A DNA stretch of 64,000 nucleotides from Candidatus Iainarchaeum sp. Lineage in GTDB: Archaea > Iainarchaeota > Iainarchaeia > Iainarchaeales > VGJJ01. Positions 14,349 through 21,496 of the stretch are shown one piece after another. Each line of letters begins with the position of its first letter. Within the stretch, counting starts at the first letter, position 1. Under the pieces are notes generated by a model. That model worked only from the letters and a program-made list of their open reading frames with translations. It searched no databases and was not told the DNA's origin. The stretch spans positions 135,891-199,890 of the forward strand of contig JAUYHT010000002.1 in assembly GCA_030688545.1 (NCBI GenBank). Direction: 5' to 3'. The position numbers and the translations under genes are program-made.

Positions 14349-15020
14349 TTACGCCTCGAGATAGAAACCCTTTTTGGTCCGGCGGAGCTTCACAACCAAT
14401 TTTTTCTTGGAAATAACCCTGGGGGATATGACCCACACCTTATGGGGGCCTTGCCGCGCTTCGTAGGCACGCCATGCTCCTACCACATACCGTTCGTTCA
14501 ATGCGTCGGGGGAGAAAAAAAAAGTTTGGTCGGCCGAGAATAGATGTACCGCTTCCCGCAAGTCAAATTTTTTCTTTCCTCGAGCGATTTTCACCCTGGA
14601 TTCTTGAGCGTGTTTGGCAGCCCACGCACGAATACGGGAGGAAATTCCTTTTTTGGATCGGGAGAATGTGGCATGAATACGCGCGGCCACACGGCGTTTC
14701 TTTTTCTTGAGCGAGTGGCGGGCTCGCGATGGGGCGTGGCGGAGGCGGTGGGCGAATAGGGAGGGGAAAGAGAGGATGCCCTCGCACATGGCCTTTAATA
14801 CGCGTCCCACGGAAGGGATGCGGCGCTCCTGCTGGTAGATGGAGAACAAGGTGGACCCGAAATAAAGAGCAAGGAGCGCGAGAAAAAACCGCACGAGAAA
14901 ACCTACATCCCCGAAAGGGGACCAGACACCCAGAAAACCGAATGGCATGGGAAAGGAAACGAGGGGGAGAATTAAAGGCTGCCCTCGAAATGCGTCTAGT
15001 ATGCTATTTCTATGGTTCAA
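14349..15020 (-). CDS. Hypothetical membrane protein with a basic C-terminal region.
   Basis: The 223-aa protein has an N-terminal hydrophobic segment. No family was recognised. The coding call is moderate. Confidence 0.3.
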   Translation of the reverse strand: MNHRNSILDAFRGQPLILPLVSFPMPFGFLGVWSPFGDVGFLVRFFLALLALYFGSTLFSIYQQERRIPSVGRVLKAMCEGILSFPSLFAHRLRHAPSRARHSLKKKKRRVAARIHATFSRSKKGISSRIRAWAAKHAQESRVKIARGKKKFDLREAVHLFSADQTFFFSPDALNERYVVGAWRAYEARQGPHKVWVISPRVISKKKLVVKLRRTKKGFYLEA

Positions 15021-16277: not shown

Positions 16278-17183
16278 TCACGCGGGCGCGTCTTGGGTTT
16301 CGAAGGAAGGGGTTCCATTCTCCCCATCTCCCGGAGTGGCCACCGCCACCATGATTTCTCCGAATAGATCATCCTGCCACGCGTTCACACGCTTTTCATG
16401 AAGGAGAAAGAGGAGCGAGAGGAAGAAATCGATTACCTCATGGGAAGAGCGCCCGTGCACGATGGAGTGGAAACGCGCGAACCCTGATTCGTCCGCGTGG
16501 CGGGGGATGAGGTCCATGAATTCCTCCATCTTGCCCTCAAGATTCATTTTGGGGATGGGGAGTGAAAATGCCTGATGGGATTTGCCCTCGCGTTCCTTCT
16601 GCGCTTTGGCCTTCGTCTTTTCGAGAATGGATTCAATGCTCTCCACGAGCATATCTAACGTGACTTTTCCTTCACGAGAAAAGCGTGGGGGAAGGAGTTC
16701 GGGCATCATGCCCCCCAATAATTCTTCCTCGGTGAGGAGTGCGCGAAGCTCAATTCCTTCTTCCTCCAGGGATGAAAGACGCAAGGCGCGTGCCTTGAAC
16801 TTGAGGAGGATGGCGGATGCCAGGATGGCATTGGCGGGGAGACGCAAGTCTGTGGATTGGAGGGAACGGATTTTCTCCAAATATTTGTGGGCCAACTCCT
16901 TCACGTCGATATTCCATGGATCCATCCGCTCGCGTTTCACTAGTGAAATTAGAATGGTCTTCCACGCGGGCTGGTCGATGAGATCCACCATGTCTTCCGT
17001 TTTATTTATTTGGGCGGAAGGATTTTCCATCAACTCGACGCCCTCGAAATCGGCATCTGGATCGTCAACCTTCTTTTTTTCAGTCACCCGTTTTCGATGG
17101 GACCGCGCAGTCATCCTTCGGGGGAGGGGGATTATCCATATAATCCTGTCTTTTGGGGGAGGGAAATTTTCTTCAATGGTCAT
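16278..17183 (-). CDS. scpA: Segregation and condensation protein A (kleisin).
   Basis: It carries the ScpA/Rec8-like motifs DPWNIDVKELAHKYLEKI...RLPANAILASAILLKFKA. The true start may be an internal Met (MENPSAQ...). Confidence 0.7.
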   Translation of the reverse strand: MTIEENFPPPKDRIIWIIPLPRRMTARSHRKRVTEKKKVDDPDADFEGVELMENPSAQINKTEDMVDLIDQPAWKTILISLVKRERMDPWNIDVKELAHKYLEKIRSLQSTDLRLPANAILASAILLKFKARALRLSSLEEEGIELRALLTEEELLGGMMPELLPPRFSREGKVTLDMLVESIESILEKTKAKAQKEREGKSHQAFSLPIPKMNLEGKMEEFMDLIPRHADESGFARFHSIVHGRSSHEVIDFFLSLLFLLHEKRVNAWQDDLFGEIMVAVATPGDGENGTPSFETQDAPA

Positions 17184-17282
17184 TATATGGGGAAAAAAAA
17201 TGCTATGGAAAACAATGGTTCTTGGGGGAAATCGTTTCAGGAAGGCCTAAACGGGCCCCACGGCTTTTTATTCCCCGAGAGA

Positions 17283-18011
17283 ATGGCTCGGAGTATGAAG
17301 CGCATGGCCTCCGGGGTGCCGGGATTTGACGAGCTGGTGGAAGGGGGTTTTCCGGAAGGGGCATCGGTGCTCATCAGCGGTGGACCAGGGGCGGGAAAAA
17401 CCATTTTCGCGATGCAATACATCTATGAGGGGGCCCGCTCGTACAACGAACCCGGGTTGTATGTCACCCTCGAAACGGGTTTGAAGGACATCACCTGGAA
17501 CATGCAGAGCTTCCGGTGGGATATCAAATCCCTTCAAGACAAAAACATGATGAAGATTTACCGGCTTAATTTTTCCCCTACTAATTCCACGGAGGAGGTG
17601 GAGGACCAAATCTCAAAAGAATTGTCGATTATCACCAAGATGGTTGACTCCATCGACGCCAAACGCCTGGTGATTGATTCCACCACCGCCTTCGGGGTTT
17701 GGGTCAAAGACCATGGGGCTCTGCGCCACCTCCTCTTCGAATTCGTGAATGGCCTAAAGGATATTGGATGCACCACCCTCCTCACGAGCGAAGTAGCAGG
17801 AGAAGATCGGAACAAGTTTTCCGCTTTTGGGGTGGAAGAGTTTGTGGTTGATGGAGTGGTGGCCCTGTATTTCATCCCTCCTAACCGGAGCATTTTCGTG
17901 CGTAAACTCAGGGGAACGGACCATTCTAAAGCCGTTCATGCCTTCGACATTGAAGAAAACGGCATCGTCGTCAGGCCTAAGGATGAAATTCCCTGGGGCG
18001 GGTTGCGTTAA
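17283..18011 (+). CDS. KaiC-like RecA-superfamily ATPase (single KaiC/RadA-like domain).
   Basis: It has a Walker A motif (GGPGAGKT), a GVPGFDELVEGGFPEGASVLISG N-terminus and a KaiC-type Walker B region. The start was chosen at an internal Met. The ORF-track start at 17010 would overlap scpA. Confidence 0.8.
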   Translation: MARSMKRMASGVPGFDELVEGGFPEGASVLISGGPGAGKTIFAMQYIYEGARSYNEPGLYVTLETGLKDITWNMQSFRWDIKSLQDKNMMKIYRLNFSPTNSTEEVEDQISKELSIITKMVDSIDAKRLVIDSTTAFGVWVKDHGALRHLLFEFVNGLKDIGCTTLLTSEVAGEDRNKFSAFGVEEFVVDGVVALYFIPPNRSIFVRKLRGTDHSKAVHAFDIEENGIVVRPKDEIPWGGLR

Positions 18012-18082
18012 CACCCATCCAAAAGAAAGAATTTTATTCTCAAGAGGAGTTGGATGGGGCAGGGTTGTACTGGAGGAGTTGG

Positions 18083-18475
18083 ATGAATCGGGTTAAGGTT
18101 TGTGGGATTATAGGGTTGGGAATCGTCATCGGTTTGATTTTTATGGGAAGTCTTGTGGTCGCGCGCCAACCGGAAGGCGCCCCCCAACGGGTGTGGGTGA
18201 CGAACAAACACGACGGCCAGAGTTTTGCTATGTTTTTGCTGGCCACGGGAAGGGTATCCAGGTGCCACGATACGGATGGGGGGATCAACCCTATGATATT
18301 CGGCACACTCTATGCCACTAATTGGGAAGGAAGCGGGACGCGGCACCTCACGGAATACTGGACGTCCTCTCGAAGAATAAGGGAGTTCGCGTGCGGGAAA
18401 GATATATTTATCAATGGCATTCGGGGAGACCCCCACCTGGCCTATGCCTTCGATTTCTACCGTTTTCCCCACTAA
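18083..18475 (+). CDS. Secreted hypothetical protein, paralogue A (conserved C-terminal REFACG...GDP..AYAFD motif).
   Basis: It has a signal/TM segment (VCGIIGLGIVIGLIFMGSLVVA) and a C-terminus RIREFACGKDIFINGIRGDPHLAYAFDFY shared with the next gene. Confidence 0.5.
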   Translation: MNRVKVCGIIGLGIVIGLIFMGSLVVARQPEGAPQRVWVTNKHDGQSFAMFLLATGRVSRCHDTDGGINPMIFGTLYATNWEGSGTRHLTEYWTSSRRIREFACGKDIFINGIRGDPHLAYAFDFYRFPH

Positions 18476-18540
18476 ACCAGGGCCAGAACCCATAAAAACT
18501 CCAACATCCATCGAGGGACATTACCTCAGGAGGTTTCAGG

Positions 18541-18963
18541 ATGAAACGAAATATGATGATAGGAATAATTCTCCTTGCCCTGCTCGCATTTGGCGGGTTG
18601 GCCCTGGCGCGGGATCCCCAGACCATCCCACCCGGGTCGTGGGTGGAGAACCTGGACGATGGTTCAGGGTATTTTGCCGATGTGTTGATGGCAGCCAATG
18701 TTGATAATTGTGTCGATTCGGATGAGGGGATGAAGCCCCTTGAGATGGGAAGCATTGATGTCACCATGCCTGGGGCGAACCGAGCGCGACACTTAGGGGA
18801 ATATAATACTCCCACCGGGAAAATTCGCGAATTCGCCTGCGGAAGTGATATCCTGATTGATGGCCAACCGGGAGATCCCGGGAAAGCGTATGCATTTGAT
18901 TACACGCCCAGCCCCCCCATCCAGAAAGGGAATCAGACCGCATTCAATATCCAGACAATATAG
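18541..18963 (+). CDS. Secreted hypothetical protein, paralogue B.
   Basis: It has a signal peptide (MMIGIILLALLAFGGLALA) and a C-terminus KIREFACGSDILIDGQPGDPGKAYAFDYT. Confidence 0.55.
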   Translation: MKRNMMIGIILLALLAFGGLALARDPQTIPPGSWVENLDDGSGYFADVLMAANVDNCVDSDEGMKPLEMGSIDVTMPGANRARHLGEYNTPTGKIREFACGSDILIDGQPGDPGKAYAFDYTPSPPIQKGNQTAFNIQTI

Positions 18964-19098
18964 TGAAGAATGGGGGGCGCGGCCCCTCTCTTTATTTTCT
19001 TTTTTAACTTTGCCCTATGAGAAGAAACATTTCAGCATGGTCATTTTTATCATAATGACCCCTCGATCCAAACGCTGGTAATTCCACGATATTATAAT

Positions 19099-19739: not shown

Positions 19740-20408
19740 CTACCTTCCTTTTTTCTTTTTTGGGCGAGTTCTCCAATTATCCAAGAGCCGCACAACCCGT
19801 TTAAATACGGTGGTAGGAGACCCTTTCCCATTGACTTCAAACACGGGATACCGCTCCGCGGCCCAATCGAGTAAGGGAAGGGTTTGCGTCCTATAAACGC
19901 GAAAGCGCTCACGGATGACAGCAGGTTTATCATCGTCGCGCCGAATAAGCTTCCCGCCATCCGCATCGCACACTCCTACTTTTTTAGATGGATTCTGTTT
20001 TCCATACACGCGACCGCACATGGCGCATTGACGTCTGTTCGCCAGGCGTGCTACTACTTCATTCGTGGAAACTTCAAGAAAAATAAAGGCATCGAAATCC
20101 ATTCCCAGAGGATTTAAACGGGTTCGGGCTCCCTTTCCCTGGGCGAGGTTCCGGGGAAACCCGTCGAAAAGGACGTTTTTTCCTTCCAATCGGGATAGGT
20201 TTTCCTGGAGAACATGATACGTGATGGCATCGGAGGCGAGATGACCTTTCGATAACAAGGTATCGATGCGCGCCGCGAATTTTCCTTTTCGCGCGGCATG
20301 ATCACGCAAAGCTTGACCCGTGGAAAAGTGAACCCATCCTTTCTTGGTGAGCAACTGCGCAATCGTTCCTTTTCCCGAGCCGGGGGGGCCCATTAAGACG
20401 AGGTTCAT
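19740..20408 (-). CDS. adk: Adenylate kinase (long, bacterial type with a Zn-binding LID).
   Basis: It has an MNLVLMGPPGSGKGT P-loop and a LID with CAMCGRVY...CDADGG Cys pairs. Confidence 0.9.
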   Translation of the reverse strand: MNLVLMGPPGSGKGTIAQLLTKKGWVHFSTGQALRDHAARKGKFAARIDTLLSKGHLASDAITYHVLQENLSRLEGKNVLFDGFPRNLAQGKGARTRLNPLGMDFDAFIFLEVSTNEVVARLANRRQCAMCGRVYGKQNPSKKVGVCDADGGKLIRRDDDKPAVIRERFRVYRTQTLPLLDWAAERYPVFEVNGKGSPTTVFKRVVRLLDNWRTRPKKKKGR

Positions 20409-21496
20409 GCCACTGCCCTCACCCGGTTTTTTTTAGGGGGTTGACGAATGGGCTTATTGGTTTTGGTGATACGTTTTCGAATGAATGACACCGAATGAAT
20501 TTTTCGACGAGCGGATTTTGTTTGACCCACCTTGATTCCCACGCACACCTGTTGCACACTGGGAGAGAAATCGCTGACCTTCCGGAAGAAGGATATGCGC
20601 CAGGAACGAGTGGAATTGGAAAGAGATTCTGTAATGGCCGTGCGCAAAGAAATCTCTCCTCCATCCTTGGGCATGAACGCATACAAATGAATTAACCCCC
20701 CCTTGGGGGAAACCCATTCCACGGCCCGCGCGAGATAGGTGATGGCCGTCTCAGGGGCGGGCATGATCACGTGATCAAATTCAGGGATTGGGGAAATCTT
20801 GGAAATATCGCCCTGAAGAGGAACGATAATATTTTCCACTTTATTGCGCCTGATATTTTCATTCAGGAAAGGAATTGCTTGAGGATTCCATTCGATGGCC
20901 ATAACACGAATGGGATGGGCATGTTTGGCAATGGTTATAGCAAAAGGCCCTACGCCCGCGAAGAACACGCATACCTGTTGGCCTTTTTTTATGTCAGCGG
21001 CCACCCGTTGGCGCTCGGTGCCCAAGCGGGGATTGAAAAAGGCTTCCCCCACTTCCACTGCGAACACGCACCCCCATTCCTTATGAAGCGTGCGCGTCCC
21101 TTTTTGGCCGGCGAGCCAACGCACGTTTTCCAAACGGAATTTCCCCCCATGCTGACCCACTTTTTCATAGACGCGCGTCAGTCTTGGGTTGGCATCTAGC
21201 AGGGCATGGGCGATTTTTTTCTTTTTCTTCTGGAGGGGTTGGGGAATCTCGATCAGGGCTAAATCCCCGACCATATCAAAGGCATAGACGGCGTGACGCT
21301 TCTCGGCCGGGGTAAGGAGGGCATCCAAACGCTTCCGGAAGGGGGTTACTGGTTCCATCCCCAAAAATTGGGAATAGAACTTAAAAGAACCAAGGGTGAA
21401 AGGATGCGTGATGGCCTTCCCAAATGACTTCATCCAGGAATTCTTTATCCGGCCCATCGTGGACTCAAGTGTGCCGGGATATAACCCGGTGAACAC
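20405..21496 (-). CDS. trm5: tRNA (guanine37-N1)-methyltransferase Trm5 / Met-10+-like class I SAM-dependent methyltransferase (could be Taw2).
   Basis: It has the Met-10+ fold motifs VFAVEVGEAFFNP, VCVFFAGVGPFAI and NII...D. Its stop overlaps the adk start by 4 nt. Confidence 0.7.
   Translation of the reverse strand: MFTGLYPGTLESTMGRIKNSWMKSFGKAITHPFTLGSFKFYSQFLGMEPVTPFRKRLDALLTPAEKRHAVYAFDMVGDLALIEIPQPLQKKKKKIAHALLDANPRLTRVYEKVGQHGGKFRLENVRWLAGQKGTRTLHKEWGCVFAVEVGEAFFNPRLGTERQRVAADIKKGQQVCVFFAGVGPFAITIAKHAHPIRVMAIEWNPQAIPFLNENIRRNKVENIIVPLQGDISKISPIPEFDHVIMPAPETAITYLARAVEWVSPKGGLIHLYAFMPKDGGEISLRTAITESLSNSTRSWRISFFRKVSDFSPSVQQVCVGIKVGQTKSARRKIHSVSFIRKRITKTNKPIRQPPKKNRVRAVA

Follow-up and report, generated by a model that had tools for sequence, protein, structure and literature searches.

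A tandem pair of predicted exported proteins in Candidatus Iainarchaeum and their relation to an uncatalogued six-cysteine repeat

The window analysed here, a stretch of 64,000 nucleotides from a Candidatus Iainarchaeum sp. contig (JAUYHT010000002.1, positions 135,891 to 199,890), contains two adjacent genes, A (18083..18475, + strand) and B (18541..18963, + strand), which are genuine protein-coding genes and paralogues of each other. The reading that we favour, and to which we give as a whole somewhat better than an even chance, is that they are lineage-specific tandem duplicates encoding a Sec-exported all-beta domain derived from a six-cysteine repeat, which would serve outside the cell as a non-enzymatic binding or structural module. 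Both genes start with ATG, and the open reading frame (ORF) calls and their translations give products of 130 (A) and 140 (B) residues. The corresponding NCBI entries, Q8P05_01355 and Q8P05_01360, are hypothetical proteins of a metagenome-assembled genome (MAG) assigned to a Candidatus Diapherotrites archaeon, a member of the DPANN. A sequence-only reading of the window had drawn attention to this co-oriented pair, and both ORFs were found where it had placed them, with the two C-terminal segments that it had singled out present in the translations.

Two paralogous genes and their family

The products of A and B align without gaps over 102 residues at 42% identity (BLASTP, E value 1e-28), and no third copy was found within the window by tblastn. 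The similarity had originally been described as a shared C-terminal module following diverged middle regions. This module (in A RIREFACGKDIFINGIRGDPHLAYAFDFY, 18374..18460, + strand, holding the invariant Glu and Cys3; in B KIREFACGSDILIDGQPGDPGKAYAFDYT, 18820..18906, + strand, holding the invariant E97 and C100) is indeed the best-conserved part, with 19 of 29 residues identical (66%), but the homology is not limited to it and covers the whole mature protein, the remainder being 33% identical (23/70) and including a second conserved motif, C-x-D-x-D-x-G-x-x-P. In the family alignment the first cysteine (Cys1) and the acidic loop that follows it appear as C-H-D-T-D-G-G in A (18263..18283, + strand) and as C-V-D-S-D-E-G in B (18709..18729, + strand). 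The extra cysteines reported for the middle regions proved not to be variable: mature A and mature B contain exactly two cysteines each, at conserved columns (C61 and C104 in A, C57 and C100 in B) that are invariant across the family, and the third cysteine of A, C7, sits inside the signal peptide. A lipoprotein reading of Cys7 was rejected, since this residue precedes the hydrophobic run.

The N-terminal signal segments noticed at first sight have a Sec-like layout in both proteins, with a positive n-region, 19 to 22 uncharged hydrophobic residues and small residues at positions -1 and -3. The predicted signal peptide of A covers residues 1-27 (18083..18163, + strand; MNRVK, a 22-residue hydrophobic run and VVA ahead of RQ) and that of B residues 1-23 (18541..18609, + strand; MKRN, a 19-residue hydrophobic run and ALA ahead of RD). 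These calls follow our own n/h/c-region heuristic, by which every family member with a complete N-terminus displays the same layout. The products are probably exported by the Sec pathway and the signal peptide then cleaved.

Proteins with the C-terminal module do define a family. A profile built from A and B was searched by hmmsearch against 1.84 billion representative proteins and gave 37 matches at E ≤ 1e-3, gene A scoring 7.7e-58 against the pair profile. Sixteen of the 37, A and B included, are small proteins of 97-150 residues that align over their whole length, and the E values of the small relatives range from 5e-17 to 1e-4 (P0003, 5e-17; P0004, 4e-14; P0005, 5e-14). With four others supplied by a word-index search and a cluster look-up, the small members number about 20 in total. 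The word-index protein search at first returned only B itself, and when queried with the family profile, eight proteins; the alignment of repeat units introduced below had no match there. Tail matches of the HMMER search to WD40, ankyrin-kinase and RCC1 proteins (E 1e-4 to 1e-3) were rejected as repeat-driven false positives.

Among GTDB species genomes and Joint Genome Institute (JGI) metagenomes, the pattern IREFACGxDI matched only an already known Iainarchaeum contig (L005). Among the viral contigs of IMG/VR none of the pattern matches could be confirmed as relatives and a scan for CTDSDGGIN had no match, which leaves the suggestion of a viral receptor-binding module unsupported. That these scans yield only the L005 contig and nothing viral indicates that the subfamily is rare. 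Literature searches covering cysteine-rich and secreted proteins of DPANN, protein families and Iainarchaeum yielded nothing on the family or the repeat.

In the family alignment six positions are invariant (C57, D61, G63, P66, E97 and C100, in the numbering of B) and two nearly so (D59 and G108). A and B have all of the features that characterize the family, namely a signal peptide, a V-x-N hairpin, the motifs C-x-D-x-D-x-G-x-x-P, R/x-x-L-x-[DE] and E-[FY]-x-C-G, and a length of about 100-150 residues. A two-cysteine subtype comprises A, B, P0003-5, 8-10, 12, 22 and 28, and a six-cysteine single-domain subtype comprises P0007, 18, 19, 26/43, 30 and 38-40. One protein of the latter subtype, Q8P05_04365 (P0043, MDP2666703.1; 141 residues), is encoded on another contig of the same MAG, and the organism therefore has both subtypes.

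Relation to a six-cysteine repeat and proposed role

Most of the remaining matches of the profile are long proteins with 2-6 copies of a unit of about 65-75 residues containing six cysteines, whose consensus is C1-x-D-[ST]-D-G-G ... G ... D-x-C2 ... L-x-E-[FY]-x-C3 ... C4 ... C5-x-x-G-x-C6 and whose invariant positions are C1, D5, G7, G14, D25, C27, E34, C37, C49, C53, G56 and C58. These repeat proteins begin with signal or lipobox-like sequences and contain as many as 29 N-x-S/T sequons; one multi-repeat protein harbors a CARDB domain. The profiles of the three groups were compared with hhalign. The two-cysteine and six-cysteine single-domain profiles match with 99.5% probability (E 2.7e-23, 116 columns), the six-cysteine single-domain profile matches the repeat units with 98.3% probability and all six cysteines aligned (E 1.2e-14), and the two-cysteine profile matches the repeat units directly over the core from C1 to C3 (97.1%, E 7.7e-11, 53 columns).

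The core that A and B have in common with the repeat (e.g. P0006, P0013, P0014 and P0021) comprises Cys1, the D-x-D loop, Gly14, the acidic residue before Cys2, the L-x-E-x-x-Cys3 strand and the strand that follows. The Cys1 motif with its D-x-D-G/x-G loop (CVDSDEG in B, CHDTDGG in A) aligns to repeat positions 1-7, and the L-x-E-[FY]-x-Cys3 strand is present as IREFAC in both proteins, with E97 and C100 aligned to repeat E34 and C37. Cys2, Cys4, Cys5 and Cys6 are absent, Cys2 being replaced by Y/N/W context residues and the C-terminal cysteine knot being gone, which makes A and B derived relatives and not canonical repeat units. Taken with the chain of profile matches, this loss of C2, C4, C5 and C6 points to A and B as single-copy derivatives of the six-cysteine repeat.

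The repeat proteins resemble A and B in their N-terminal export signals and in an all-beta predicted structure, and differ in having 4-6 copies of the unit (P0006, P0013, P0014 and P0021, for example) against one. Unlike the repeat, A and B have an extra N-terminal beta hairpin (V-x-N-x-D-D-G...) and a second hairpin inserted after Cys3, which is the 'GxDIxIxG...AYAFD' part of the motif first noticed; they also have few or no N-glycosylation sequons. The six-cysteine single-domain subfamily is like A and B in length, in its signal peptide and N-terminal hairpin, in having one repeat unit with the inserted hairpin, and in forming a tandem pair at one locus (L004). It differs from them in keeping all six cysteines, in its many sequons and in its genomic contexts (a deoxyhypusine synthase/major facilitator superfamily (MFS)/peptidyl-prolyl isomerase (PPIase) block, or a TrmB-like neighbour).

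No known domain matched the motif, which the sequence-only reading had likewise not recognized. Neither A nor B has a match in Pfam or NCBIfam up to E 10, and the same libraries revealed no recurrent family among 16 family members, 27 repeat units and 20 long repeat proteins. Sub-threshold one-offs to DUF6120, Tryp_inh and an MXAN_6577-like family were rejected as not recurrent among members. The best match of the three profiles to PDB sequences by hmmsearch had an E value of 0.22. An AlphaFold2 model of B based on a 16-sequence alignment is confident, with a predicted local distance difference test (pLDDT) score above 90 for residues 31-120 and eight beta strands; the product is laid out as a predicted signal peptide, a beta domain and a 20-residue C-terminal tail of low confidence. 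That of gene A consists of a predicted signal peptide and a beta domain of about 100 residues of the two-cysteine subfamily. The model of a repeat unit (pLDDT 92.8) is also all-beta.

Foldseek found no significant fold match for these models, the best E values against PDB being 0.25 (B) and 1.9 (repeat unit) and the best against BFVD 0.075, so that the statement of no known fold covers solved (PDB) and viral (BFVD) structures. The Foldseek matches to HIV-1 protease (E 0.25, TM score about 0.2, root-mean-square deviation 11 A) and to Sac7d (E about 2) were considered noise. The family and its six-cysteine repeat are therefore uncatalogued in Pfam, NCBIfam and PDB. They add a new form to the broad class of disulfide-stabilised extracellular repeat modules; the A/B pair is not a new kind of system.

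After export by the Sec pathway, the mature proteins of about 100 residues would fold into a compact all-beta domain. A disulfide between C1 and C3 (C57 and C100 in B) is proposed, as no other cysteine is retained and every member has the two together. Across the small family the acidic positions D59, D61, [DE]86 and E97 show conservation, and their repeat counterparts D3, D5, D25 and E34 are invariant or nearly so; in B, the residues D59, D61, E86 and E97 may form a cation site of the Ca2+ type, or a fixed polar network, beside the disulfide. The extracellular role of the proteins would be non-enzymatic, that of binding or structural modules of the envelope which make contact, for example, with a surface, a glycan or a partner cell; their rapid divergence (see below) would then reflect surface exposure. 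This role is proposed because the homologous repeat sits in multi-copy, sequon-rich and cysteine-rich proteins. It is mainly this homology that makes an adhesin tip or binding module, among the functions first put forward, the most reasonable guess.

The conserved Asp/Asp/Glu set could instead be catalytic, A and B being small secreted enzymes, for example of glycoside hydrolase or lytic type, acting on envelope polymers. The only invariant polar residues are indeed the carboxylates D59, D61, [DE]86 and E97. Their conservation in every copy of a repeat present 4-6 times per protein, as is typical of structural or metal-binding repeats, argues for a structural role rather than catalysis; moreover, the domain is very small and no similarity of fold or sequence to any enzyme was found, and we consider an enzymatic function very unlikely.

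Besides this catalytic alternative, several points weigh against the favoured reading of a Sec-exported, non-enzymatic binding or structural module. No annotated relative pointing to any function was found. The acidic loop, D-S-D-E-G in B and D-T-D-G-G in A, resembles the canonical DxDxDG loop and departs from it. Export rests on a heuristic and not on a trained predictor. A and B contain no and one N-glycosylation sequon, respectively, unlike many of their relatives, and no surface anchor is recognisable in either. Finally, the A+B clade has a bootstrap value of 40% in the family tree, which does not resolve the duplication.

The DxDxDG calcium loop is reportedly defined in the work of Rigden and Galperin and is said to include EF-hand-like, dockerin and thrombospondin type 3 types. 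A and B share with such loops a conserved acidic, Gly-containing loop, here in a predicted extracellular, disulfide-containing repeat, and differ in their non-canonical spacing, since a third Asp at position 5 with a Gly next to it at position 6 is missing. DxDxDG-type domains gave no match in sequence or fold to A, B or the repeat.

A bolder possibility, to which we give a low though appreciable probability, is that the small family and its parent repeat represent an undescribed extracellular fold, a disulfide- and Ca2+-stabilised adhesion module with which DPANN archaea would make contact with surfaces or partner cells. Its two-cysteine form in Iainarchaeia would be soluble or envelope-bound, with A and B working together and forming, for example, a heterodimer. 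DPANN archaea are thought to depend on cell contact, and most of their exported proteins are hypothetical. What is at hand is a rare, fast-evolving exported family tied to a six-cysteine repeat without coverage in domain databases or solved structures. Should the module prove to be a cation-dependent binding domain, it would constitute a new archaeal cell-surface building block and a handle for finding DPANN surface proteins. Taken alone, the pair is one more lineage-specific hypothetical family, with about 20 members and a context without functional clue.

Genomic setting, duplication and divergence

In the window, A and B lie within a block at 13.9-23 kb with the gene order thioredoxin (Trx), a gene here called x, VIT1, ScpA, KaiC, A+B, thymidylate kinase (Tmk), adenylate kinase (Adk), Trm5 (Trm5/TYW2), DUF63 and Dph5 (a diphthine-synthase-like methylase). 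The same order is found at two related loci, L005 (a Candidatus Iainarchaeum MAG) and L012, where one family gene stands in the place of the two (in L012 the contig breaks off inside the gene that follows DUF63). A and B match each other better than they match any other protein, and of the two it is B that lies nearer to the single-copy orthologues, A being the more divergent copy. Since two related genomes have only one copy at this syntenic position, a lineage-specific tandem duplication is the simplest reading of the pair and the most likely one. An independent tandem pair, of the six-cysteine type, is present at L004.

The family gene diverges faster than its surroundings. Between the window and L005 it is 36% identical at the protein level, against 54-82% for ten neighbours, KaiC being at 82%; between L005 and L012 the values are 42% for the family gene and 58-92% for the neighbours. 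No pair at intermediate distance exists: the only close relatives are identical in DNA (L005 = L013) or 99.9% identical (L014 and L015), and beyond these protein identity falls to 36-42%. The initial description of A and B as duplicated, diversifying exported proteins thus agrees with their paralogy and with the contrast between 36% for the family gene and 54-82% for its neighbours.

Such divergence, together with small size and an export signal, would also suit secreted conflict or effector proteins, that is, a toxin, an inhibitor or a host-manipulating effector of a DPANN symbiont driven apart by an arms race, and it is consistent with this that tandem duplication arose twice in the family and that the distribution of the family is patchy and rare. 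However, in related genomes the gene is present once, at a fixed place in a housekeeping block and not in a variable island. No partner immunity gene, toxin domain or secretion-system genes lie nearby, no context of PADLOC or PHROG type was seen and no viral relatives were found. That the homologous repeat builds long proteins of several units, with N-termini of signal or lipoprotein-like character, suits a structural or adhesive role. The narrower proposal of a toxin/immunity-like pair is not supported, given the homology of the two products, the predicted signal peptides that both of them carry and the retention of a single copy in two related genomes. We regard an effector role as unlikely, with a rather small chance of being right.

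The gene upstream of A does encode a KaiC-like ATPase (PF06745, E 1e-63), as the sequence-only reading had proposed. This adjacency raises the question of whether A and B are accessory proteins of that ATPase, as substrates or partners of a KaiC/ArlH-like signalling or pilus ATPase, or pilin-like subunits. They are co-oriented with the KaiC-like gene, A beginning 72 nt downstream of it, and the adjacency is kept in L005 and L012. The entire block of about ten conserved housekeeping genes is nevertheless syntenic, so that the adjacency carries no specific signal, and it is kept only in the syntenic clade (window, L005 and L012). Members of the family in L001/L003, L004, L008/L009 and L010 have no KaiC neighbour; the genes that flank other members are deoxyhypusine synthase/MFS/PPIase, ThiI-like/ThiS/ThiF, a membrane protein, dCMP deaminase or a TrmB-type regulator. 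Moreover, the family genes each have their own TATA-like box and Shine-Dalgarno sequence, and KaiC is cytoplasmic and 82% conserved whereas the family gene is predicted to be exported and is 36% conserved. Judged from gene order across these loci, the adjacency is inherited synteny, and a functional tie to the ATPase does not follow from it.

As for pilins, A and B resemble archaeal type IV pilins and ArlH-type systems in being small exported proteins with a hydrophobic N-terminus adjoined by a single-domain KaiC-like gene. They differ in that no class III [KR]-[GA] layout precedes the hydrophobic run, save for one ambiguous exception in the family (P0010), and the small residues of A and B follow that run and do not precede it. 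No assembly ATPase or platform gene of PilB/ArlI or PilC/ArlJ type is present among the genes scanned at 13.9-23.1 kb. A link to KaiC or to pili is in our view extremely unlikely, slightly more so than an enzymatic function.

A TrmB/MarR-type helix-turn-helix gene, divergently oriented, lies just upstream of the family gene in L001 (6855-7916), L002 (1303-2364) and L004 (697-1437), an adjacency found in two otherwise unrelated contexts. Among the repeat proteins, the gene directly downstream of the six-repeat P0014 (L018, 1485-2999) encodes 504 residues without a Pfam match and overlaps the P0014 stop codon; its product may be a co-transcribed partner of P0014.

Flanking signals and neighbouring open reading frames

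A putative promoter and ribosome-binding region of A, read from the sequence, extends over 18032..18078 (+ strand), with a TATA-like TTTTATT (18032-18038) about 45-50 nt before the ATG and a GGAGGAG (18072-18078) that ends 4 nt before it. The corresponding putative region of B (18492..18533, + strand) contains ATAAAAA (18492-18498) about 45 nt before the ATG and AGGAGG (18528-18533) 7 nt before it. The orthologues in L005, L012, L010 and L001 are likewise preceded by a TATA-like box and GGAGG. A scan detected a terminator-like G+C hairpin (18972-18988) with a T-rich run directly 3' of B (18972..19005, + strand), and the single-copy orthologues in L005 and L012 also end in a hairpin and T-run. 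A promoter-like box and a terminator-like hairpin appear to accompany each family gene individually.

That A and B might be spurious was considered on the grounds that they are short ORFs without database annotation, that a 167-residue antisense ORF overlaps A, and that codon usage scores favour A only weakly over its antisense frame. Against this stand the intact orthologues that two other genomes have at the corresponding syntenic site, a family of about 20 proteins detectable by hidden Markov models and with invariant residues, a confident AlphaFold2 model obtained from only 16 sequences, the GGAGG ribosome-binding sites of both genes and the terminator-like hairpin after B, and the probability of spurious ORFs is close to nil. 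The antisense ORF (18008..18511, - strand) spans gene A, has no homologue or annotation behind it and was itself taken as spurious.

Two further assemblies (L014 and L015) contain this A+B pair, their DNA being 99.9% identical, and gene A is called identically in GCA_034375545.1. The window and GCA_034375545.1 have only four differences over 6.4 kb, one of which (18617 C>G) changes Pro26 of B to Arg, three residues past the predicted signal-peptide cleavage site.

Several ORFs of the block have starts that differ from other calls. The KaiC-like ORF (17010..18011, + strand; 333 residues, TTG start) is over-extended, the call in GCA_034375545.1 being 17295..18011 with 238 residues; this single-domain ATPase is the most conserved gene of the block (82% vs L005). 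The mechanical ORFs overlap at 19740..19776 (Tmk/Adk) and 21396..21496 (Trm5/DUF63), and the L014 calls are shorter (Tmk, 211 residues; Trm5, 317 residues); both overlaps are probably due to over-extended starts. Finally, apart from the family genes only one gene of the block evolves fast, the ORF 14349..15020 (- strand), which separates the thioredoxin gene from VIT1. It has no Pfam match and is about 30% identical to genes of 105-108 residues in the corresponding position of L005 and L012; the start of its 223-residue call is probably over-extended.

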